DNA of 46,235 bases. Origin: Candidatus Levyibacteriota bacterium (GTDB taxonomy: Bacteria > Patescibacteriota > Microgenomatia > Levybacterales > UBA12049). This document shows, piece after piece, positions 8,853 to 41,139 of this stretch. Position 1 is the first letter of the stretch; the number at the start of each line of letters is the position of its first letter. A program made the position numbers and the translations under genes. The notes below the pieces were generated by a model. That model searched no databases and was not told the DNA's origin. It saw only the letters and a list, made by a program, of their open reading frames with translations. The stretch is from positions 1-46,235 of the forward strand of contig CP066685.1 of the NCBI GenBank assembly GCA_016432345.1. The letters run 5' to 3'.

Positions 8853-9335
8853 TTATAACATACTCATTTTTGCAGAAAGGGCATGCGTTATGGCAACGGC
8901 GAGCGCATCTGCAGTATCATCAAGTTTTGGCACACTATCTAATTTGAGTAATATCTTTACCATCTGTCCAATCTGATTTTTTTCTGCCCTGCCATAACCG
9001 GTTAAAGCCATTTTTACTTGCAGCGGCGTATATACCGAAACTGGTAAATTATGCTGCCCTGCGCAAAGCAGTACCACTCCCCGCGCCTGGCCAACAACCA
9101 AGGCTGTTTTACTATTGGTGCCAAAAAATAATTCTTCGATTGCCAAAACATCAGGTTTGTATTTTTTTATAATGCTAGTAATTTCTTTATAAATCTGCAG
9201 CAATCTTTCTTCGTTTTTTTGCTTTGCATCCGTCTCGATACAACCATAACTGTGAACTGTGAACTGTGAACTGTGAACTTTTACGATCCCCCATCCCATT
9301 CTTCCTATTCCCGGATCAATTCCTAAAATAACCAT
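8853..9335 (-). CDS. ruvC: Crossover junction endodeoxyribonuclease RuvC
   Basis: ILGIDPG, AIEELFF, DDTADALAVA. Confidence 0.97.
   Translation of the reverse strand: MVILGIDPGIGRMGWGIVKVHSSQFTVHSYGCIETDAKQKNEERLLQIYKEITSIIKKYKPDVLAIEELFFGTNSKTALVVGQARGVVLLCAGQHNLPVSVYTPLQVKMALTGYGRAEKNQIGQMVKILLKLDSVPKLDDTADALAVAITHALSAKMSML
9248..9279 (+). repeat. (AACTGTG)4 heptamer tandem repeat inside ruvC
   Basis: Four exact copies plus AACT; encodes 'VHSSQFTVHS' in-frame. Confidence 0.95.
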
Positions 9336-10541: not shown

Positions 10542-12598
10542 GCAGATACCATTATAGACTCTTTAGCCCCAAGGCGCTTATATATCTCCTCTGTCACAAA
10601 TGGCATAAAAGGATGAAGCAACTGCAAAAGAATAGCGTATAGCGTATAGAGAATAGTATAAGAATTTTCGTCGAGGCGGTTTTTGACGTCTTCGATATAA
10701 ACATCGGCAAACTCGTGCCAGATAAATTCGTAGAGCCTCTCTGCGGCAAAATTAAACTGATAGTTATCAATATATTTTGTTATATCCCCTATTAGTTTTT
10801 CAATTTCTTGAATCATCTTTTTATCATTCTCATGCTTTTCATGTTTTAATAATTCCCCATTATTCACCTGCCGTTTCATTTCAATAAATCGTCCTATATT
10901 CCATAATTTATTAGTAAACTTTCTCGCAGCATCAAGTTTTGGATAAGAAAGACTCTGATCATTTCCCGTTGCGTTTCCATACACCAAAGCAAATCTTACT
11001 GCGTCCGCGCCATATTGCTCAACCAGTTCCAATGGATTTACTACATTCCCCTTAGATTTACTCATCTTCTTACCATATGGATCGTTAACAATCCCATGAA
11101 ATAGCACATTTTTAAATGGTATTTTCCCTGTTCTATACATACTCATCATAACCATTCTTGATACCCAAGCTTTTAAAATATCATAAGCAGTTTCCATAAC
11201 GCTTGTTGGATAAAACTTTTCAAAATCACCTGGTTTTGTCGTCTGTAATGTTACGTATGGCCATTGACTCGATGAAAACCAAGTATCAAATGTGTCTGTA
11301 TCCTGCTCCCATTCTTCTCCTTTTGGCGCCTCCCCTTCTGTTACCACCCATTCTCCTGTTTTTTTATTTTTCCAAGCAGGAATTCTAATCCCCCACACAA
11401 TTTGGCGAGAAATATTCCAATCGCGCAAATTCTCCAGCCATTGAAAATAGATGTTTTCAAAATTTTTGGGGAAAATGCGAATTTTACCTTCTTTTACAAC
11501 TTCTATTGCTTCTTTTTTTAACTTATCTACCCTCATAAACCATTGCTCTTTGGGTAATGGCTCAAGCACTGATTTACATTTGTAACAAAGGTTTAGGCGC
11601 GTCACGTAGTTTTCATCAATTTTCTCAATCAACTCTTTTTGCTGCATTTCCTCCACAATAGCTTTCCGCGCCTGTTTAACAAAGAGGCCCGCAAATTTTC
11701 CAGCATGCTGATTTAGCTTGCCATCAAAATCAATCACCTGCTTCATGGACAAATGATGCCTTTTTCCTGTTTCGAAATCGGCAAAATCATGGGCTGGTGT
11801 AATTTTTACTACTCCTGTCCCAAAATTTGGATCAACCGATTCATCGGCAATTACTTTTATTTTTGCTTTTCCTAAAACTGTTTCTATATCTATCTCTTGT
11901 CCAATATACTGTTTATACCGCTTGTCATCTGGATTAACTGCTACCGCAGTATCACCAAATTTTGTCTCGGGTCTGGTGGTGGCTAAAACCAACGAGCCAT
12001 ATTTTATGTAATACAAAGGCGCTTGACGTTCTTCATGCGCCACTTCCAAATCAGAAAAAGATGTGCCATCAACAGTGCAGTAATTTACCAAACGATAATC
12101 GCGGTAAATAAGACCTTCGTCAAACATTTTTTTAAATGTTTTATAAACCAATTTGGTAATATCTTTGTCAAGAGTATATTTTTCCCGACTCCAATCCAGA
12201 GAAAACCCAAGTTTTCGCAATTGATTTTGAATTCCTCCCCGATGATCTTCCACATATTCCCAAATCATTTTATAAAGCGTTTCCTGGTCGTAATCGAGTC
12301 TCGACTTACCTTCGAGCTTTAACTTTTTTTCAAACACAAACTGCGTTTCTATACCTGCGTGGTCAGTTCCAGGAAACCACAAAGCAGCATCACCAAGCAT
12401 CCTATGATAACGGATTAAAATATCCTCTACTGTAAACATGGCGTGGCCAAAATGAAGCGCGCCATTGGCATTTGGCGGTGGCAAAATTATGGTATATGGT
12501 TTGCCGTTTGGGTTGACTTCGGGCTTAAAATAACCTTTCTCTTCCCACTCTTTATAAATTTTTTCCTCAACGTCTTTGTGATTATAAACTTTATCCAT
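10529..12598 (-). CDS. valS: Valyl-tRNA synthetase (short form)
   Basis: PPPNANGALHFGH (HIGH-type), DWNISRQIVWG, DTFDTWFSS, KMSKSKGN; ends at 'SAWPK'. Confidence 0.97.
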   Translation of the reverse strand: MDKVYNHKDVEEKIYKEWEEKGYFKPEVNPNGKPYTIILPPPNANGALHFGHAMFTVEDILIRYHRMLGDAALWFPGTDHAGIETQFVFEKKLKLEGKSRLDYDQETLYKMIWEYVEDHRGGIQNQLRKLGFSLDWSREKYTLDKDITKLVYKTFKKMFDEGLIYRDYRLVNYCTVDGTSFSDLEVAHEERQAPLYYIKYGSLVLATTRPETKFGDTAVAVNPDDKRYKQYIGQEIDIETVLGKAKIKVIADESVDPNFGTGVVKITPAHDFADFETGKRHHLSMKQVIDFDGKLNQHAGKFAGLFVKQARKAIVEEMQQKELIEKIDENYVTRLNLCYKCKSVLEPLPKEQWFMRVDKLKKEAIEVVKEGKIRIFPKNFENIYFQWLENLRDWNISRQIVWGIRIPAWKNKKTGEWVVTEGEAPKGEEWEQDTDTFDTWFSSSQWPYVTLQTTKPGDFEKFYPTSVMETAYDILKAWVSRMVMMSMYRTGKIPFKNVLFHGIVNDPYGKKMSKSKGNVVNPLELVEQYGADAVRFALVYGNATGNDQSLSYPKLDAARKFTNKLWNIGRFIEMKRQVNNGELLKHEKHENDKKMIQEIEKLIGDITKYIDNYQFNFAAERLYEFIWHEFADVYIEDVKNRLDENSYTILYTLYAILLQLLHPFMPFVTEEIYKRLGAKESIMVSAWPK
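10633..10660 (+). repeat. TAG-heptad array inside valS (antisense strand)
   Basis: tagcgta|tagcgta|tagagaa|tagtata; the coding strand gives 'YTILYTLYA'. Confidence 0.8.
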
Positions 12599-16066: not shown

Positions 16067-17374
16067 ATGGCAACAGAAGACAATAATCCATGGAAAAGGT
16101 CTCAAGAAAAGCTGCGGGCTATTGCCAAAAAAATACATCTTGACCCACTGCTTTTAGCCGAGCTTGAAGAGCCAGACAGAATCATCACCACTTCTCTTCC
16201 TATTCGCCTCGATAACGGCAACATCCAAACATTTACCGGCTACCGCGTCCAACACAACAACGTCCTTGGCCCATACAAAGGCGGCATCCGTTACCACCCA
16301 CAGGTTTCGATGGACGAAGTAAAGGCATTGGCCTTTTGGATGACTGTAAAATGTGCTGTTATTAACGTGCCGTTTGGCGGTAGCAAGGGCGGTATTACGG
16401 TTGATCCAAAGTCGCTGTCTGAAAATGAATTACGAGAACTAACTTATGTATTTTCCAGAAAGCTAGCGCGTGCCATTGGGCCAGAAATAGACGTTCCGGC
16501 GCCAGATGTTAATACCAATCCAACAATTATGGGCTGGCTTGTTGAAGAATACGAAAAACAAGTCAAAAGTCAAAAGTCAAAAGTCAAAACTTCTTTAACA
16601 GATAATCAATTAAAAGCTGTTGTTACCGGCAAACAGGTCGACCAAGGCGGATCACTAGGCCGAACCGAAGCAACAGGACTTGGCGGATTCTACGCCCTAA
16701 TGCATGTCTTAAAAAAGCTTGGGTTAAATCCAAAAGATATGACTGTGGCTGTCCAGGGATTTGGCAATGTTGGCTACTATGCCGCAGAGTTTTTCTATAA
16801 AGAGGGTATAAAAGTTGTCGCAGTATCTGATTCCAAAGAGGGTATCTATGTAAAAGAAGGACTTAATCCAGATAAAACCTTAGCGTGCAAAAAAGAAAAA
16901 GGTATGCTTTCAGGCTGCTATTGTATTGGATCAGTCTGTGATGTAAAAAATGGCAAACAAATTACCAATAAAGACTTGCTTGAACTTCCGGTCGATATTT
17001 TAGTGCCGGCCGCCCTTGAAAATGTGATCACAGCAGAAAATGCAGCTAATACAAAAGCAAAAATTATTCTGGAACTTGCCAACGGACCAATAACAATCGA
17101 GGCCGATACAATTCTTGCACAAAAAGATACTATGGTAATTCCCGACATCCTTGCCAATTCCGGCGGGGTATGTGTTTCTTACTACGAATGGTATCAAAAT
17201 ATGCATAACGAAAAATGGACAAAAGAAGATGTATTTAAAAAACTCAAAAAACAGATGGAAGAAGCAACTAACGATGTATGGACAATAAGTAAAGAAAAAG
17301 GGGTATCACTTCGCGACGCAGCATATATAGTAGCGCTCCAAAGAATACAAAACGCATGGAAACATGAACATTGA
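16067..17374 (+). CDS. gdhA: Glu/Leu/Phe/Val dehydrogenase (glutamate dehydrogenase-like)
   Basis: GPYKGGIRYH, GGSKGG, DVPAPDV, QGFGNVG, ELANGP, PDILANSGGV. Confidence 0.92.
   Translation: MATEDNNPWKRSQEKLRAIAKKIHLDPLLLAELEEPDRIITTSLPIRLDNGNIQTFTGYRVQHNNVLGPYKGGIRYHPQVSMDEVKALAFWMTVKCAVINVPFGGSKGGITVDPKSLSENELRELTYVFSRKLARAIGPEIDVPAPDVNTNPTIMGWLVEEYEKQVKSQKSKVKTSLTDNQLKAVVTGKQVDQGGSLGRTEATGLGGFYALMHVLKKLGLNPKDMTVAVQGFGNVGYYAAEFFYKEGIKVVAVSDSKEGIYVKEGLNPDKTLACKKEKGMLSGCYCIGSVCDVKNGKQITNKDLLELPVDILVPAALENVITAENAANTKAKIILELANGPITIEADTILAQKDTMVIPDILANSGGVCVSYYEWYQNMHNEKWTKEDVFKKLKKQMEEATNDVWTISKEKGVSLRDAAYIVALQRIQNAWKHEH
16560..16589 (+). repeat. (AAGTCAA)4 heptamer tandem repeat inside gdhA
   Basis: Four exact copies; encodes 'VKSQKSKVK' in-frame just before 'AVVTGK'. 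Confidence 0.95.
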
Positions 17375-26452: not shown

Positions 26453-27802
26453 TTATACCAGGTCTTTGTTATTCCTGCTAAAACAGAGACTCAAAACAAC
26501 AGCAAATAATATTTGTCCTTGTTGCAATGTTAAAAAGTAATGATCAAACAAACCCAGAATTAGAATAGTAGTAAGTAGTATGTAGCATGTATTAAGGGGT
26601 AAATTATTTCTCGTCTTGATACTTAATACTGCCCTTAGAAGAAACCACAAAAACATTCCTAACCCCAGCAGGCCTGTTTCTGCTACAATAAGAAAAAAGA
26701 TATTGTGTACCGGTTGAAGCAATGTAAAAAGAGAACCTGTATTGTTTTTTTGATAATAGGGAAGTGTCGGTAAAAAATTATACAGGCCAACTCCAAAAAC
26801 AGGATGATCTTTTACCATTGTTATTGCAGTATTTGCAAGTTCAATTCTTCTAACAATCGCTTCGTCCATTGTTGAAATATTGAAAAAACGAGAAGACAAA
26901 AAAAACATAAAAATGCTACCAATAAATACCAATATTGCCGCGCTTATAATTTGAAATGAATTTTTAATGACATAATTTTTAATAAAAAGTGCCACCATCA
27001 GAAACCATAAAATAATAGCAACGCGACTCATTGTAAACAAAAGAGCAATAGAACCAATCAATAAAGAAGTAAAAAAATAAATTTTTTTAATTTTGATACT
27101 TGACTGGAAATTGAAAATTATTGTTGTCATCGCGATGATTAAATATCCAGCCAAAACATTTGGGTGAGGAAATGTAGCGTATGGCCGCAAAACAAGTTTT
27201 CCATCTAACGAGGCATTGGCAATTCCTGAAGTTTGTGATGTAAATGTTCTTTCTCCAAAAAAATAAAATATTCCTCCAATTGACCCTTGTTTAACAAACT
27301 GCAAAATTGCCAAACCCGACTCAAACAAAACTCCCATACAAAATATAAATGCAAGTATTTTGAAATCCTGAGCAGTCTTTATTGTTTTTGCGGCAACAAA
27401 TCCCAAAAAAACAAATTCTAATAATTTGAGCAATCCATAAAATCCTGCCATTGGGTTTTTGGAAAAAAGTATACCAAACAGAAGAACTAATAAAAATAAA
27501 ACAATTTGCAATTTGAAATTTGAAATTTGAAATGAATTTTTAATATTTAAATTTTTAAATTTTTTTTGTTTGATTGAAAATTGAAAATTGAAAATTGAAA
27601 ATTTAGAAACTTGAATAAAAATGTCAAAGACCCACAAAACCAATAAAATAATAATTAAAACATCAGTAAAATACAGGGTGGGGGAAAGATAATCAATTCT
27701 TAATCCCGAAACATAAGACCAAGACGGCCAAAAATGTTTACCAAGTTGAACGGGAAGAAAAAGAATAATTGTATAAAAAATAAACTTTTGAAGTGTTTTC
27801 AA
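26453..27802 (-). CDS. O-antigen ligase (Wzy_C/WaaL-like) membrane protein
   Basis: About 11 TM segments; 'RPYATFPHPNVLAGY', 'TMSR', 'HPVFGVG', 'PVHNIF', 'FDHY'. Confidence 0.88.
   Translation of the reverse strand: MKTLQKFIFYTIILFLPVQLGKHFWPSWSYVSGLRIDYLSPTLYFTDVLIIILLVLWVFDIFIQVSKFSIFNFQFSIKQKKFKNLNIKNSFQISNFKLQIVLFLLVLLFGILFSKNPMAGFYGLLKLLEFVFLGFVAAKTIKTAQDFKILAFIFCMGVLFESGLAILQFVKQGSIGGIFYFFGERTFTSQTSGIANASLDGKLVLRPYATFPHPNVLAGYLIIAMTTIIFNFQSSIKIKKIYFFTSLLIGSIALLFTMSRVAIILWFLMVALFIKNYVIKNSFQIISAAILVFIGSIFMFFLSSRFFNISTMDEAIVRRIELANTAITMVKDHPVFGVGLYNFLPTLPYYQKNNTGSLFTLLQPVHNIFFLIVAETGLLGLGMFLWFLLRAVLSIKTRNNLPLNTCYILLTTILILGLFDHYFLTLQQGQILFAVVLSLCFSRNNKDLV
26569..26596 (+). repeat. Four-heptad TAG unit inside the ligase gene (antisense)
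   Basis: tagtaag|tagtatg|tagcatg|tattaag. Confidence 0.7.
27504..27614 (+). repeat. Heptamer arrays (ATTTGAA)3 and (ATTGAAA)4 inside the ligase gene
   Basis: Exact copies at 27511-27531 and 27573-27600, with degenerate flanks; encode 'FQISNFKLQI' and 'FSIFNFQFSI'. Confidence 0.92.
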
Positions 27803-35249: not shown

Positions 35250-35277
35250 CTTAATACATACTACTTGCTACTAACTA
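35250..35277 (-). repeat. Four-heptad TAG unit providing the virB4 stop codon
   Basis: tagttag|tagcaag|tagtatg|tattaag. Confidence 0.85.
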
Positions 35278-37564
35278 CTTTTTCTTCCTGTTTTTGTAGA
35301 ATTTCTTGTGGGTTAGAGGTAATAAGTTCATGCTCAAAAGGGGCGGCGACAATTTTTATGGCCACATGATTTTGCCCGGCAAAAAAAAGCCCCTCTCCAA
35401 TATTTGAGGCCAAAAGCAATTGTCTTTCTCCTTGGGAAAGAAAAAAGGTTTTACTAACAATATCAATTTCCGATGCGCCTTGTTTAAGAAGAATTTGTAA
35501 TGAAGAATTAGACAAAACAGCTTTTCCATAATCGGTGGATAAGAAATCTTCCACATCTTGTGTGGCTGTTGTTAAACCTAAATAGTATTTTCGAGCCCTT
35601 TTGGCAATGCCATAGACAAAGGAGGCGCTGTCTTCGTATTTCATCATGTACCAGGCCTCGTCCAAAATAAGCAGGCGTTTTTTAAGATTTTTTCGAATGC
35701 GCGTCCAGACGAAATCCAAAATAATATGCATGGTAATTGGTCGAAGCTGGTCTTCAAGTGTTTTAAGAGAAAACACGGTTAACGGATTTGTGATATCTAT
35801 ATTTGATTGTTGGTTAAATATGCCAGCCAGACTTCCTTTAATAAATTTTTCCAGTCTTAGCGCTAGTTCTTTAGCGTTTTCATCTTCCATACCCAAAAGC
35901 ACTTTATACAAATCTTCCATCAAAGGCGGCTCTTTATTTTGAGTTTTAGGGTCTTGGGTAATACCTTTTTGTTGATATGTTTGTACTAAAGCCCTATCTA
36001 AAATTGCATCGTGTGAAGCGTCAAGGTTGCCCATAACAATTTTTAAAAGCGCGTGTAAGGAGAGAATTTTAAGCCCCAGTTCATTTTCGCCCTCTGTGTA
36101 AAGTCCAGACAAATCAAACGGATTTATTTTTATTGGAGAAGAGGGAGTAAAACTTAAATATTCACCTTGTAAGGCTTTAGTTAAATTTTCGTATTCTCCT
36201 TCTGGGTCAAGAATTATTACTTCTGTTCCCAACATAAATTGTCGCAACACCTCAAGTTTAATAAAGTACGATTTTCCAGATCCTGATTTTCCAAAAACCA
36301 CCTCGTTGGCATTTTCCAGAGAAAATCTGTCAAAAACAACTAAAGAGCTGTTTTGTAAATTAACACCATATAATATTCCTTTATCTTGGGTAAGCATGGC
36401 CGAGGTAAAAGGAAACATGGAGGCAAGAGATGTTGTGTCCATATTGCGGGTCATAAAAAGTTTATCCTGACCTAGGGGGATAGTTGTTTTAAGCCCTTCT
36501 TCTGTTTGCAGTGTAGTCGGCTTGGCAAGAACAAGCAAGCTGGCTAGAGTGGATAGAAGGCGTTTGACAGCGCTATCTAAGTCCTGTTCGTTTTCGGAAG
36601 TTAGAGTAACATAAAGACTAAAAAGAAAAAATCGCTCCAGTCCTTTGGCCAATTCTTCCTGCAGTCCCAGCGCGTCTTCCAGAGCTGCTGTTACTGTGGG
36701 ATCAACAACTTTACCTTTTTCTGCTTGGCTGGAGATGGTTACTTCCATTTCGGCGATTTTACGCCGAAGATCGGAAAGAATATCGGGAGATGAGGCAGGG
36801 TAAATAAACATCGCAATATCAAGTTCATGATCAAAATCAATTAAAGGCGAGAGCCAATTAGAAGAAACATAGCGTGGATAGCCGACAATAAAAAAAGTTC
36901 TGGCAATTTTTGTGCCAATCTTAATAGATTTAAAATCAACTTCAATAGAAGAAGGAGCAATAAGGTCAACAACAGAGTTTTTAGGATTTTGAGTGTTTAA
37001 GGCTGTGCTATGCTCATCGTTGTAAATGCTGTAGAAAATTTTCATAAGGCTTTCTTTTTCGGCAATTTTACTTCGAAGCCCCAAGCGTCCAAACTGCGAC
37101 AGCACAGATTCTGCTTTGGTATGCAAAGCCGCCTTGGCAGAAAGAAAAAAATCCTCTTTTTTAAGAGTAGTTCCGACAACACTTTTCTCCAGAGATGAGT
37201 AAGACAAGACAATGTAAAATGTTTTATCAAGTACTGTATTTATCTTAATAAGGTCTTGAACAAATAAGCGGTATTTTTTAAGATAATCAGTTTGTTTTTC
37301 TGCATCAAGACGTTTTATGTAAGATGAGACATCAACGCGTTTGTTGCGAATAACAATTTGGACCGGAAAAGAAAGCGAATTAAGAAACGAGGCAAAAGCA
37401 AAAATTTTTGCTTGTTTTTCCTCGGGGGAGAGAAGTGAAAAATTTGTGGCCTGTACTTCTATAAGCAAACAAGCATTGCCGTTTGTTAAAAGTACGATAT
37501 CCTCTTGAATATCTTTTATTTCAGTAAACTTTTGAGTGGACGCGCGAATTTTTTGGGCAGCCAT
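35261..37564 (-). CDS. virB4: VirB4/TraC-like secretion ATPase
   Basis: Walker A GKSGSGKS, 'ILDPEGEY', 'INPFD', Walker B 'LILDEAW', 'KRARKY'. Confidence 0.9.
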   Translation of the reverse strand: MAAQKIRASTQKFTEIKDIQEDIVLLTNGNACLLIEVQATNFSLLSPEEKQAKIFAFASFLNSLSFPVQIVIRNKRVDVSSYIKRLDAEKQTDYLKKYRLFVQDLIKINTVLDKTFYIVLSYSSLEKSVVGTTLKKEDFFLSAKAALHTKAESVLSQFGRLGLRSKIAEKESLMKIFYSIYNDEHSTALNTQNPKNSVVDLIAPSSIEVDFKSIKIGTKIARTFFIVGYPRYVSSNWLSPLIDFDHELDIAMFIYPASSPDILSDLRRKIAEMEVTISSQAEKGKVVDPTVTAALEDALGLQEELAKGLERFFLFSLYVTLTSENEQDLDSAVKRLLSTLASLLVLAKPTTLQTEEGLKTTIPLGQDKLFMTRNMDTTSLASMFPFTSAMLTQDKGILYGVNLQNSSLVVFDRFSLENANEVVFGKSGSGKSYFIKLEVLRQFMLGTEVIILDPEGEYENLTKALQGEYLSFTPSSPIKINPFDLSGLYTEGENELGLKILSLHALLKIVMGNLDASHDAILDRALVQTYQQKGITQDPKTQNKEPPLMEDLYKVLLGMEDENAKELALRLEKFIKGSLAGIFNQQSNIDITNPLTVFSLKTLEDQLRPITMHIILDFVWTRIRKNLKKRLLILDEAWYMMKYEDSASFVYGIAKRARKYYLGLTTATQDVEDFLSTDYGKAVLSNSSLQILLKQGASEIDIVSKTFFLSQGERQLLLASNIGEGLFFAGQNHVAIKIVAAPFEHELITSNPQEILQKQEEKVVSSK

Positions 37565-37569
37565 AAAAT

Positions 37570-38583
37570 TTAACTAAACAAAGCTTTACGCAGTTCTTCT
37601 CGGGCATCAATGCTTGTTGCTTCAATTGGCCCAATAATTTCGCCAGTCATGGTGAGTTCTAGGGCGTCAAATTTTTGCTTTCCGCTTGGATCATCAAATT
37701 CAATGGTATATACGCCGTTTAAAAGAGGAGTAGCCGAGGCAAATTGGCCGAGCTGATTTGTTTTAAACGCCCTAACAGGATTGTTGTCTTTGTCTTTTAC
37801 TTCAACTAGAATATTCGACAAAATATTGCCCCTGGCATTTTTAACAATTCCAATTAATACATTAGGCGAATCAGAAACAGGCAGTCCCACCGCATTTGTT
37901 AGGCTTTTTGCCGGCACTTTTTTAACAATAGCTTGCGTAACTTGTATTGGCGGAGCAGGCAGAGGTTCTGTTTTAACAGATGGTTGTTGGATTTGCGGCG
38001 GCGCAGTTTTTTGCTGCGCAAGCATTTGCTTAAGCGCAAGAAGCTCTTTTTCGATACGTTCTTTTTCCAAGCGGGTAGTTTGCAATTCTTGTAGAATAGA
38101 CTGATAGTTTGTTTGTTCTTTTTGTGGCTGCTGCTGGATAATTTGTTGGGTAGGCTGAGAGATAACATCGGCTTTTTTTGATTCTTCCGGCTGTTTTTTA
38201 GAAATTTGAAGAACAGGAGGTTTTGGTGTTGAGTTTGCTGGGGACGCAGTTGTTGCAATGGGTTTTAGCATGGCTTTTGTTTGTAATTGTGGAGAGTTAG
38301 ATAGCTGATATATATATTGGTTTGGAGTAAACAGCGCTTTAATAAAGTTAATAATCATAACATCCATTGGTCGTCCCTCAATTGGTAAAAAAGCTAAACC
38401 AAAGCCGAAAAAACCAAAAATAAAAGAAATCGGCAACTTAATAATTCCAGGCATGGGAGAAATATATACAACCCAGGCCATAACAACCCCGCTAATTAAA
38501 TAGGAAAATTGCTTAACAGTCATGTTGCCAATCAGTTTAAACTGAAAGCCGGTAACATCTTGTGGAATAGGATGATTTTCCAT
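37570..38583 (-). CDS. prgI: PrgI-family (VirB3-like) membrane protein with a C-terminal carboxypeptidase-regulatory-like domain
   Basis: 'HPIPQDVTGFQFKLIGNMTVKQF', two TM segments, 'GRP'; C-terminal 'KTNQLGQFASATPLLNGVY'. Confidence 0.85.
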   Translation of the reverse strand: MENHPIPQDVTGFQFKLIGNMTVKQFSYLISGVVMAWVVYISPMPGIIKLPISFIFGFFGFGLAFLPIEGRPMDVMIINFIKALFTPNQYIYQLSNSPQLQTKAMLKPIATTASPANSTPKPPVLQISKKQPEESKKADVISQPTQQIIQQQPQKEQTNYQSILQELQTTRLEKERIEKELLALKQMLAQQKTAPPQIQQPSVKTEPLPAPPIQVTQAIVKKVPAKSLTNAVGLPVSDSPNVLIGIVKNARGNILSNILVEVKDKDNNPVRAFKTNQLGQFASATPLLNGVYTIEFDDPSGKQKFDALELTMTGEIIGPIEATSIDAREELRKALFS

Positions 38584-38589
38584 ATACTT

Positions 38590-38624
38590 AAGCGTATAGC
38601 GTAAAGAAAATAGCGTATAGTTAG
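38590..38624 (+). repeat. TAGCGTA-type heptad array downstream of the four-helix-bundle gene
   Basis: aagcgta|tagcgta|aagaaaa|tagcgta|tagttag. Confidence 0.85.
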
Positions 38625-38626
38625 AA

Positions 38627-39004
38627 CTAAATGCTAGACGTTGTTACCTCCTTTCTTTTATAAACCATAACATATAGCATTTTTATAGCTTCATTTAATA
38701 ATGACTCAGCGTTTTTAAATTTTTCTTCAACTGTAAAATGAAGCTTTTTGGAGATAATTAATTGTGTTTCGAGTTCTAATGCTGATCCATATGCTATTGC
38801 GTAGAACTGTAGATATTCCTTGTGCGATCTCCTTCTGTATCCTTCTGCAATGTTTGATGGGATAGATATAGAAGATCTCCGAATTTGAGAAATGATTCCA
38901 TATATTTCCTCTTTTGGAAAAAGAGCAGTTAGTTGATATATGCACTTAACTAATTCAATAGATTTTTGCCAAACGATTAAATCTTTGTATGATGTTATTT
39001 TCAT
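38627..39004 (-). CDS. Four-helix-bundle protein (23S rRNA IVP / Avd-like family)
   Basis: 'SYKDLIVWQKS', 'FPKEEIYG..SQIRRS..SIPSNIAEG', 'AYGSALELETQL'. Confidence 0.93.
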   Translation of the reverse strand: MKITSYKDLIVWQKSIELVKCIYQLTALFPKEEIYGIISQIRRSSISIPSNIAEGYRRRSHKEYLQFYAIAYGSALELETQLIISKKLHFTVEEKFKNAESLLNEAIKMLYVMVYKRKEVTTSSI

Positions 39005-39011
39005 AATCTCA

Positions 39012-39088
39012 ATTAACTAAATACTATACGTTATGGACTATACGCTTGTAATAAAAACTATACGCTAAACGCTATTCTCTATACCCTA
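39012..39088 (-). repeat. TAGCGTA-type heptad array upstream of the four-helix-bundle gene (inverted relative to the downstream array)
   Basis: Minus strand: tagggta|tagagaa|tagcgtt|tagcgta|tagtttt|tattaca|agcgta|tagtcca|taacgta|tagtatt|tagttaa. Confidence 0.85.
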
Positions 39089-39140
39089 TGTTTATATAAT
39101 GTGAAAAATCTGATTTCAAGATTATCAAAGTAGGTCAAAA

Positions 39141-39170
39141 GGGGTACAAAATTGGGAATTTTTGTGAAAA
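39141..39170 (+). repeat. 30-bp direct repeat, left copy
   Basis: ggggtacaaaattgggaatttttgtgaaaa; 29/30 identical to 39893-39922. Confidence 0.95.
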
Positions 39171-39177
39171 GTCGATA

Positions 39178-39215
39178 TTGACAGAACAACAGCTTTGTTA
39201 TAATATAGTTATAAC
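39178..39215 (+). promoter_or_regulatory. Promoter and palindromic operator of the AbrB-Doc module
   Basis: TTGACA 39178-83, TATAAT 39199-204 (15-nt spacer, suboptimal); palindrome GTTATAA-tatag-TTATAAC 39197-39215. Confidence 0.65.
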
Positions 39216-39245
39216 CAAAATAACAAGGAGGGGGGGGTGATAGTT

Positions 39246-39494
39246 ATGTTACAAAAAATAATTCAAGTTGGTAATTCGTATGCTATAACTATACCGCGAA
39301 GATTTGCAGACGAGATAGGAATAAAACCAGGACAAAAAGTTAGAATAGATGAAGATTTTGATACCGAAACATTTACAGTGCAGCCAGTAAAATCTCAAGC
39401 AGCAAAAGGTTATCTTACGCCGGAATTCTTAAAATGGCTCAAAGGATTTAACGCGCGATATAAAGATGCGTTAAAAGAGTTAGCAAAAAAATGA
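39246..39494 (+). CDS. AbrB/MazE-type antitoxin
   Basis: 'IIQVGNSYAITIPRRFADEIGIKPGQKV'. ATG at 39246 or GTG at 39237. Confidence 0.88.
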   Translation: MLQKIIQVGNSYAITIPRRFADEIGIKPGQKVRIDEDFDTETFTVQPVKSQAAKGYLTPEFLKWLKGFNARYKDALKELAKK

Positions 39495-39886
39495 AAGGGA
39501 TTACTTATATCACTTTAGATGTTGTTTTAGCCATTCATGATGATATGGTAGAACGATATGGAGGGAGCCATGGCATAAAAGATTTAGGGTTGATTCAGTC
39601 AGCGCTTGCTCGACCACAGGCGTCATTTGGTGGAGAAGATCTTTATCCAACAATTCTTGATAAGGCTGCCGCTCTTTTTCATTCACTTATTTTCAATCAT
39701 GCTTTTACAGATGGAAACAAGCGTACGTCTATCACGACTACCGCTCGATTTCTTTACATAAATGGATATGAATTCAAAGTAGATAAAAAGGAGCTTATCG
39801 ATTTTCCGCTTCGTGTTGAGAATAAACATTTAACTATCGTAGAAATTGCCAAATGGCTTAAAACCCACGCCAGAAAAAAAAGGTAG
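39491..39886 (+). CDS. doc: Doc/Fic-family toxin
   Basis: Fic motif HAFTDGNKRT; 'GIKDLGLIQSALARP'. Confidence 0.93.
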   Translation: MKGITYITLDVVLAIHDDMVERYGGSHGIKDLGLIQSALARPQASFGGEDLYPTILDKAAALFHSLIFNHAFTDGNKRTSITTTARFLYINGYEFKVDKKELIDFPLRVENKHLTIVEIAKWLKTHARKKR

Positions 39887-39892
39887 TAAAAC

Positions 39893-39922
39893 GGGGTACA
39901 AAATTGGGAATTTTTGCGAAAA
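39893..39922 (+). repeat. 30-bp direct repeat, right copy
   Basis: ggggtacaaaattgggaatttttgcgaaaa. Confidence 0.95.
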
Positions 39923-39924
39923 TC

Positions 39925-41139
39925 CTATTTATATATTGCGTCAACATTTCCAATAGCAGAAATACCAAGCATAAAAAGCATTATTAAAAGACCCCCGCTG
40001 CCACCTTTCTTTCTTAGCGCATTAACACTCTCGGCAATTTTTCTCCTGTCTTCTTCAGACATTGACTCTGTGCCCGGAATTGCGGCAATTACAGATTCAA
40101 CATTGCCGCTTCTCACAGCCCTGATAAGCGTTTTTGCTGTTTCTAGGTCTCCAGCGCCTTGTTTTGTTTGTTCCATAAACTTTTGGAGCGGACCATCTTT
40201 TGCCAGCGCTTGCGCTGCGTATGATAATATTTTTGCTTGGGTTTCCGCCTGCGCTAATGCGTCAGTTGTCTCTTTGGTTGGATTTCTTTTAACTGCTTCT
40301 TTTGCTTGCTCTACCATTTCGTTTGCGGTTTGTTGGATAGTTTCTCCACTTACTCCTGCTTTGCTGAATGCTTCAACGACAGTTTCGAAATTAAGAAGAT
40401 TTCCTTGTTCGGCCGCACGGGTTATTACTTCCATAAAGGCTGTTTGTTGTTCTATGTCTTGAGGAGCAATAGATTTGTGAAGTTCTAAAAGATCGTTTAT
40501 GGTGAGCATGCCATTACTTTCTGCTCCTTTTATAATGACTGCGTCCATTGCTGCGCTTTCCGCAGTTCCTAAAGCAGGTATGGCATGGTCTGGGTCTTTG
40601 AGAATGTTAATTTGCATTTCCAAAACTGCTCTTTCGGGGGAATCTTTTGGAAACTGACTTAAAATAGCATCTGCTTCCGATAGTAGTTGAGCATCAAAAA
40701 CAGCAGATCTAGCAACGGTTTGTACATCATCCACCCCTTCAACACGACACGTAAAAGTTTCGTCGTCAGCGCTTTCGATATAGAGCAGTTTTCTTTGTTC
40801 GCCGTTTATTGTTAGCATTGCTGGATTGCCGTCGGTAAAATCAATGCCGTTTGGATCATTATTTGTTTTGTGATTTCCCGATGCTATGCTTCTGATAGCG
40901 TCTAAATTTTTAATTTGGTTTCTTGCGCGGATTGTTTCTGGGGTTTGCTGACTATTTCCAGTGTCAGCAGCCAATTCGTTTGCTTTTCTTCTTATGGTTG
41001 CATTGGTAACTTGTCGTAGTTCTGTTTGCTGCACGTCTTGTCTGGTTTTTTCTGGCATAGGGTTTGATTCTGGCGCTGCTTCTGGCGATGGCACAGACGG
41101 AGGTGGTTCTGGAGGTCTTATTTCTGTTGCTTCTGGCAT
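39925..41139 (-). CDS. Hypothetical acidic protein with a Pro/Glu-rich N-terminus and a C-terminal hydrophobic anchor
   Basis: 404-aa ORF with a good upstream promoter; no family recognised. Confidence 0.7.
   Translation of the reverse strand: MPEATEIRPPEPPPSVPSPEAAPESNPMPEKTRQDVQQTELRQVTNATIRRKANELAADTGNSQQTPETIRARNQIKNLDAIRSIASGNHKTNNDPNGIDFTDGNPAMLTINGEQRKLLYIESADDETFTCRVEGVDDVQTVARSAVFDAQLLSEADAILSQFPKDSPERAVLEMQINILKDPDHAIPALGTAESAAMDAVIIKGAESNGMLTINDLLELHKSIAPQDIEQQTAFMEVITRAAEQGNLLNFETVVEAFSKAGVSGETIQQTANEMVEQAKEAVKRNPTKETTDALAQAETQAKILSYAAQALAKDGPLQKFMEQTKQGAGDLETAKTLIRAVRSGNVESVIAAIPGTESMSEEDRRKIAESVNALRKKGGSGGLLIMLFMLGISAIGNVDAIYK

Follow-up and report, generated by a model that had tools for sequence, protein, structure and literature searches.

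What is a small gene for a four-helix-bundle protein doing between two arrays of 7-nucleotide (nt) repeats that run in opposite orientations and can pair around it? This question is raised by a locus in the genome of Candidatus Levyibacteriota bacterium (assembly GCA_016432345.1), in the first 46,235 nt of contig CP066685.1, which form the window analyzed here. The gene belongs to the PF05635 family and lies upstream of prgI and virB4. An earlier, sequence-only reading of the window had described it as part of a minimal cassette that might be mobile or regulatory. Comparison with homologues showed that an open reading frame (ORF) inside inverted heptad arrays is the normal layout of the PF05635 family across many phyla, and that each cassette has a repeat unit of its own.

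The ORF (38627-39004, minus strand) encodes 125 amino acids. The 84 nt upstream of it (39088-39005 on the mRNA strand) consist of 12 heptad slots, eight of which start with TAG, and the array reaches the ORF's ATG with a gap of 0 nt. From 39088 onward, slots 1 to 6 read TAGGGTA, TAGAGAA, TAGCGTT, TAGCGTA, TAGTTTT and TATTACA, and slots 7 to 12 read AGCGTA (6 nt), TAGTCCA, TAACGTA, TAGTATT, TAGTTAA and TTGAGATT, followed by ATG. This leader is the G-rich arm of the cassette (39005-39090, minus strand), and Tandem Repeats Finder (TRF) detected period 7 at 39058-39089. The trailer, which pairs with the leader, is the C-rich arm (38584-38645, minus strand; TRF 38591-38620). After the stop codon it reads ..AACTATACGCTATTTTCTTTACGCTATACGCTT AAGTAT, then the prgI ATG. 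It has five CTA-phase units (38623-38590), inverse to the leader, and 6 nt are left between them and the prgI ATG. These counts agree with the roughly 11 TAGnnnn heptads of the leader and five reversed heptads of the trailer that had been claimed from the sequence alone. A TAG-phase stretch at 38645-38624 overlaps the end of the ORF and its stop codon and recurs as a direct repeat at 39033-39012. The ORF core is flanked by the direct repeat AACGTnTAGnATTTAGTT, which is 20 nt long and is itself made of heptad sequence. Degenerate heptads are also found within the 3' end of the ORF (38659-38682, minus strand), where they code for KMLYVMVY. The whole insertion measures 507 nt (38584-39090, minus strand), as seen by alignment to the empty site of a related genome, G008. 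With at most one mismatch allowed, the window has 12 occurrences of TAGCGTATAG, where 1.4 would be expected.

The two arms can pair in several registers. As previously noted, TAGCGTATAGTT of the leader (39067-39056) is perfectly complementary over 12 bp to AACTATACGCTA of the trailer (38622-38611), and register-shifted pairings exist as well. These join 38596-38620 to 39065-39089 (the outer pairing; 25 nt, 84%) and 38591-38622 to 39056-39087 (32 nt, 75%). An inner pairing joins 38659-38682, inside the 3' end of the ORF, to 39019-39042 (24 nt, 83%). This pairing is the inner section of a predicted long stem, and the duplex of the leader with the extended trailer was calculated at -52.9 kcal/mol. 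The leader-trailer duplex had a predicted energy of -30.0 kcal/mol compared to -21.6 +/- 3.5 kcal/mol for dinucleotide-shuffled trailers, and 8 of 500 shuffles reached the native value. When the whole 521-nt RNA was folded, as the sequence-only reading had proposed, its ends were paired and z was -4.4. The local 3' hairpin was rejected as a stable element because it reached only -8.5 kcal/mol. No known RNA family, including rRNA, was found with Rfam within 37500-40000, and no intrinsic terminator (a GC-rich hairpin followed by a T run) within 38400-39300. A sigma-70 scan gave promoter-like sites that were no more numerous than in shuffled sequences.

The layout of the family was examined at 80 homologue loci (45-66% protein identity) from Candidate Phyla Radiation (CPR) groups, Bacteroidota, Acidobacteriota, Planctomycetota, Omnitrophota, Nitrospinota, Firmicutes and others. 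Seventy-nine loci were used in the leader and trailer statistics, with start codons assigned by rule, and 180 ORFs from the same loci served as controls. At nearly all the homologue loci the leader contained a short-period array that returned as its reverse complement in the trailer, and the unit varied by genome. The best autocorrelation lag in the leaders was 7 in 51 of the 79 loci, 8 in 16 and 9 in 5; lag 7 was best in 29 of the 180 controls. The score of the leader against the reverse complement of the trailer was at least 14 at 47% of the 79 loci and in 1% of control ORFs. Flank complementarity in other family members, on which the sequence-only reading had staked its interpretation, is therefore the rule. 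The leader's best partner was its own trailer at 33 of the 79 loci, and at 9 of 12 Bacteroidota loci with a cassette at the sdhA/sdhB junction. This junction lies between the genes for the flavoprotein and the iron-sulfur subunit of succinate dehydrogenase/fumarate reductase and is occupied in 12 Bacteroidota genomes. The units of these cassettes (L013, L015, L022, L025, L033, L051, L055, L062, L068, L070, L073 and L077) differ, with period 7 or 8, and the arms are matched inside each cassette.

G010, a related genome of about 1 Mb, has 20 family matches, and 17 are intact cassettes, each with its own unit. G010, G059 and G175 are all genomes of about 1 Mb with 19-20 PF05635 copies, an unusually high load. 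The G-rich (TAG-type) arm was upstream on the sense strand at 55 of 61 loci. Variant units followed one another in the trailer in an order that weakly mirrored the leader (Wilcoxon p 0.006), and protein identity correlated with unit similarity (Mantel r 0.37, p 0.001).

The protein matched PF05635 (23S_rRNA_IVP) with an E value of 1.2e-38 and 132.1 bits (cut-off 33.8) and NF008911 with 141.6 bits (cut-off 137). The assignment to a TIGR02436-type family made from the sequence held, with 123.1 bits for TIGR02436, 'four helix bundle protein' (cut-off 24). The protein is basic (pI 9.4), and its gene is single-copy in the 762,565-bp genome. The relatives in PDB, 2gsc (match E value 1.5e-22) and 2rld, have five chains each, and S23p of Xanthomonas campestris is a homopentamer (PMC4990558). 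By analogy, the cassette protein is probably homopentameric too. The match to the bAvd hidden Markov model was weak (E value 6e-4). Identity with Avd of diversity-generating retroelements was rejected since the NF033474 Avd equivalog model gave 19.2 bits against a cut-off of 80, and a search of the whole genome for reverse transcriptase (PF00078) gave no match.

Directly downstream of the cassette is the gene for a PrgI-family membrane protein (37570-38583, minus strand), followed in the operon by a gene for a VirB4/TraG-P-loop type ATPase (35261-37564, minus strand), so the cassette stands immediately upstream of prgI-virB4, where the sequence-only reading had placed it, with its trailer ending 6 nt before the ATG. 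Upstream of the cassette is a promoter-like block (..TTGACCTACTTTGATAATCTTGAAATCAGATTTTTCACATTATATAAA; 39091-39145, minus strand) that is conserved in relatives. Beyond it, divergent from the cassette, lies a pair of genes for a MazE/AbrB-type antitoxin and a Fic/Doc toxin (39237-39886, plus strand). The two genes overlap by 4 nt, and the pair is kept beside the empty site of G008. In that genome 7 nt (GAAAGTA) separate the promoter block from the prgI ATG, compared to 507 nt here (39090-38584). PrgI is 56-62% identical, the promoter block is about 90% identical and the divergent MazE/Fic neighbours are the same; this conserved synteny fixes the orthology of the empty site. The ORF and both arrays are missing together in G008. 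An empty-site orthologue, for which the sequence-only reading had said to look, thus exists, and together with the flanks of the family it supports the earlier idea of a minimal cassette that is closed by inverted heptad arrays and gained or lost as a unit.

This slot, just before prgI, is occupied by a PF05635 ORF in six other relatives (G001, G009, G019, G023, G027 and G034). The cassettes in this slot belong to at least four protein lineages with 28-62% identity, each framed by its own repeat units, and there is no cassette before prgI in about 29 of the 36 relatives that bear the gene. The history of the slot is one of gain, loss or replacement at a hot spot and not of vertical inheritance of a prgI regulator. 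In cassette-less relatives the promoter block adjoins prgI directly, which would place the cassette within the 5' portion of a transcription unit that comprises prgI-virB4, and we infer that it is co-transcribed with prgI. The conserved block TTTGATAATCTTGCAnTCAGATTTTTCACnTT.. precedes prgI in all relatives (39091-39145, minus strand, in the window; L083-L089 and L149-L154). A -10-like TACGCT or TATAAA lies 7 nt before the prgI ATG in the cassette-less relatives, and this spacing suggests that prgI mRNA is leaderless. The last unit of the cassette recreates TACGCT-N7-ATG before prgI.

The sequence-only reading had also offered gating of the secretion operon as a function. The cassette would then be a dedicated riboregulator of prgI-virB4, in which the trailer pairs either with the leader or with the TAG-phase stretch at the end of the ORF and so controls prgI translation. 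The trailer's position just before a prgI ATG that has no Shine-Dalgarno sequence fits this idea, as do the alternative local and long-range pairings and the presence of a cassette in the slot of seven relatives. The comparison did not support this claim, since the same cassette type occupies unrelated junctions (sdhA/sdhB and many others) and prgI has no cassette in most relatives. With a clean empty site in G008, slot cassettes of unrelated lineages and a weak local hairpin, we find such a riboregulator very unlikely. A secretion-specific regulator as the main function of the locus was rejected on the basis of the G008 empty site, the unrelated slot lineages and the sdhA/sdhB cassettes.

Arrays of the cassette's unit are not confined to the cassette. 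Across the genome, 26 loci hold 50 exact copies of the 10-mer TAGCGTATAG, compared to 0 for the control, so the TAGCGTA-type arrays are a genome-wide repeat family that is not private to the PF05635 gene. Many of the array loci are hairpins that lie between genes, enclose no gene and follow the pattern [TAGCGTN]n-TAGTT-loop-AACTA-[NACGCTA]n. At other loci the unit is repeated in tandem within reading frames, including those of pilin leader peptides (751770-751799 and 755580-755609) and membrane protein N-termini (369113, 409278 and 548048), where the TAGCGTA unit is in frame. Within the window, the TAGCGTA array AGAATAGCGTATAGCGTATAGAGAATAG lies at 10629-10656, apparently where a minus-strand coding region ends. 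A gene for RNase III (rnc) is present in the genome at G000 743987-744379. Directly after this gene comes a gene-less TAGCGTA/TACGCTA hairpin (G000 744641-744690) that ends just before the next ATG.

Period 7 (and 14) predominates among the strong tandem repeats that TRF found in this genome, with many different units. The near-perfect period-7 arrays were either 14-21 nt long, which is the chance level, or 30-36 nt long (30 arrays), and none in the genome measured 22-29 nt or more than 36 nt. A size class like that of 30-36 nt was absent from the genome at periods 5, 6, 8 and 9. This length distribution would not be expected from simple slippage. Examples in the window are at 9248-9279 (AACTGTG x4.6), 16560-16589 (AAGTCAA x4.3), 27503-27533 and 27573-27603.

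The number of arrays followed the number of PF05635 genes across genomes, in a census that counted TAG- and GAT-phased period-7 arrays only. Among 41 relatives, at least 10 four-unit period-7 arrays were present in 25 of 31 genomes with PF05635 and in 1 of 10 without it (Fisher p 1e-4). In 201 genomes of the class, PF05635 copies correlated with array number (Spearman rho 0.72, p 8e-33), and the median was 0, 3, 16, 23 and 38 arrays at 0, 1, 2-3, 4-6 and at least 7 copies. Within the taxonomic families that had both states, PF05635-positive genomes were richer in arrays in 16 of 18. A cassette's own flanks add only 0.2-0.7 pattern matches each; therefore, the correlation is not trivial and a flank artefact was rejected. 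Arrays are essentially near zero in genomes without a PF05635 gene, exceptions aside.

Another possible explanation of the layout is coincidence, in which the ORF merely landed between two copies of an abundant repeat to which it has no functional or evolutionary link. Arrays of the unit at 26 loci and at many gene junctions would make such an event easier. Leader and trailer are, on the other hand, matched in a cassette-specific way across phyla and in only 1% of control genes, G008 lacks the ORF along with both arrays, and genes and arrays co-occur at the genome level. We regard coincidence as hardly credible.

Judged from its sequence, the locus is probably a selfish cassette of the intervening sequence (IVS) type that lies outside rRNA, with arms that pair in the transcript as a substrate for RNase III. 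The leader and the trailer would pair into a long stem, and RNase III would cut this stem as it does for the rRNA IVSs of Coxiella, Leptospira and Salmonella. The ORF RNA would be set free by the cut, and the host RNA on either side would remain functional. An insertion that is cut away in this manner could be tolerated in rRNA, at tight operon and gene junctions and in 5' untranslated regions (UTRs). The basic protein would act on the heptad arrays, which it would bind and might also generate or maintain. For recognition of heptads by the protein, as suggested by the sequence-only reading, the evidence is indirect and consists of the correlation of protein identity with unit similarity and of gene copies with arrays. 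On this view the dispersed arrays and the gene would constitute one system and not a regulator of secretion.

Several observations weigh against this explanation. Mismatches between the arms on the sense strand were G.U in 81 cases and A.C in 87, which is no bias and lends no support to selection for a stem in the sense RNA; the complementarity could instead belong to the DNA level alone, as a property of two arrays with one unit. The arm pairing is imperfect (75-84%), and the repeats permit many registers. No known mobility enzyme was found for the cassette, which is an insert without a transposase, and comparison of the filled and empty sites gave no clear target-site duplication. Perfect arrays whose units bear no relation to that of the cassette (AATTTTC, AAATCTC, CAAATAC and others) are also present in the genome, and a model of one protein for one unit does not cover them. 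Phylogenetic control of the gene-array correlation consisted of the within-family contrasts only. Arrays without the gene are present in G015 (58 TAG- plus GAT-phased matches), G064, G148 and G170, and some genomes have the gene without TAG- or GAT-phased arrays.

Since there is no G.U bias and maintenance at the DNA level is possible, the main rival is a system that resembles the repetitive extragenic palindromic (REP) sequences and their REPINs, which are served by RAYT transposases. REP/REPIN-RAYT systems were reportedly described by Bertels and Rainey in 2011. In a system of this type, the arrays would be hairpins, cruciforms or recombination substrates, and RNA processing would be irrelevant. 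The PF05635 protein would spread, homogenize or maintain the arrays in trans, with the cassette as the seat of its gene. As in REPIN-RAYT systems, a single-copy gene lies between inverted short repeats that are also dispersed as gene-less intergenic hairpin doublets, here at 26 loci. The dose-response seen in 201 genomes, in which arrays increase with gene copies, the lack of G.U bias in the arms and the quantization of arrays at 30-36 nt, or about five units, which matches a pentameric protein, are all consistent with this rival. Cassette-private units are also what homogenization within an element would give. However, the PF05635 gene is not an HUH/Y1 (IS200/IS605-like) transposase gene, as it matched only PF05635 and, weakly, bAvd, and no fold or motif of a nuclease or recombinase is known in the family. 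The repeats are tandem heptads with a cassette-specific unit and not a fixed palindrome of about 20-25 nt. The missing target-site duplications and the coexistence of cassette-unrelated units count against the DNA-level system as well. The fixed polarity of the G-rich arm points to a constraint at the transcript level, and the known prototype, the Coxiella IVS, is processed at the RNA level. We consider a DNA-level system rather unlikely.

Cyanobacterial short tandemly repeated repetitive (STRR) sequences are intergenic heptamer direct repeats. A second set of heptamer repeats, with the unit TAACTGA, has been described in Beggiatoaceae, Cyanobacteria and Bacteroidetes (MacGregor 2015, PMC4679880). 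These are 2-6 tandem copies that are mostly intergenic, oriented and end just before start codons; they contain stops in all three frames, and their patchy distribution suggests transfer (PMC4679880). The arrays in this genome are likewise tandem 7-nt repeats that are mostly intergenic, oriented and close to start codons. They differ from TAACTGA and STRR repeats in forming inverted pairs around a four-helix-bundle gene. Neither the text nor the supplement of PMC4679880 mentions an IVS or a four-helix-bundle gene. Our literature search found no paper that joins the IVS protein or PF05635 with heptamer repeats, and the search on STRR gave nothing relevant. Among eight metagenome contigs with inverted TAACTGA arrays 380-410 nt apart, the arrays enclosed PF05635 ORFs in two (E value about 1e-29). 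In the remaining contigs they enclosed 5S rRNA and tRNA, or tRNAs, which are RNAs cut from precursors. The arrays at L157 1565-2468, L161 726-1149 and L158 504-932 stand around 5S rRNA plus tRNA (rRNA operon spacers) or tRNA pairs, with the geometry of a processing stem.

MacGregor proposed a post-transcriptional regulon for the TAACTGA repeats (PMC4679880), and a similar proposal can be made for the cassette. The arrays would be an autoregulatory operator bound by the PF05635 oligomer, which would repress or stabilize its own mRNA and act on other array-bearing junctions as a regulon. Arrays here and in the homologues end a few nt before start codons, like TAACTGA repeats (PMC4679880), and inverted TAACTGA arrays flank PF05635 ORFs. 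The basic protein and the correlation of its identity with unit similarity are also in line with an operator. A single protein lineage cannot, however, read the many unrelated units of one genome, and arrays are found in frame within coding regions too. These points make an operator improbable.

The boldest possibility builds on the REPIN/RAYT-like rival, on the quantization at 30-36 nt and on the pentameric relatives. PF05635 pentamers could be the missing factor behind bacterial heptamer repeats, with a ring of five subunits that reads five 7-nt units. Each subunit would contact about 7 nt, and each ring would hold about 35 nt of single-stranded DNA or RNA. By this means the protein would generate, homogenize or preserve arrays of about five units. 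Such a ring would explain the quantization at 30-36 nt whatever the unit and the matched arms of each cassette. It would also explain why array number scales with gene copies and why arrays are nearly absent from gene-less genomes. We put this forward as a tentative suggestion. If it is true, the rRNA IVS, the TAACTGA repeats and the STRR repeats are facets of one gene-plus-repeat system.

We know of no function assigned to the PF05635/TIGR02436 family since the IVS was described and, to our knowledge, no mechanism has been offered so far for bacterial heptamer repeats such as STRR and TAACTGA. The family is very widespread, with up to 20 copies in the genomes of about 1 Mb studied here. The finding that the gene and its inverted heptad arrays are one unit in many phyla, which is gained, lost and replaced at fixed junctions, links two long-unexplained features, and both old questions become directly testable by experiment. 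The cassettes and arrays also matter for the annotation of reduced CPR genomes because they turn up there within operons, rRNA operons and 5' UTRs, and even in reading frames.

Two known systems share the protein fold with the cassette. Avd (bAvd) belongs to the same four-helix-bundle fold family and is basic, pentameric and associated with nucleic acid, features that the cassette protein shares or is predicted to share. It differs in context, since neither template repeats nor variable repeats accompany the cassette and a reverse transcriptase is absent from the genome. The second system is the rRNA IVS, which is regarded as a selfish element that moves horizontally (PMC4990558). The IVS of Coxiella is 428 nt long, lies in helix 45 of 23S rRNA and contains an S23p ORF, whose product is a homologue of about 14 kDa (PMC4990558). 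The inverted repeats at its two ends form a 28-bp stem, which is cleaved by RNase III in vitro (PMC4990558). GACAGAT heptamers in tandem, in 2-3 copies depending on the strain, lie just 5' of the ORF (PMC4990558). The cassette resembles the IVSs of Coxiella and Leptospira in its PF05635/S23p ORF, in its length (about 430-500 nt) and in inverted repeats at its ends that can pair into a long stem. The Coxiella IVS also shares with it the tandem heptamers directly 5' of the ORF, with 12 slots here. Unlike the rRNA IVSs, which occupy helix 9, 25 or 45 of 23S rRNA, the cassette lies between a promoter and prgI. Its arms are wholly heptad arrays (12 and 5 units), and its unit is also dispersed genome-wide without the ORF. 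On the evidence of the sequence, the cassette appears to have every feature of the Coxiella IVS except the rRNA context, with processing by RNase III as the predicted step here.

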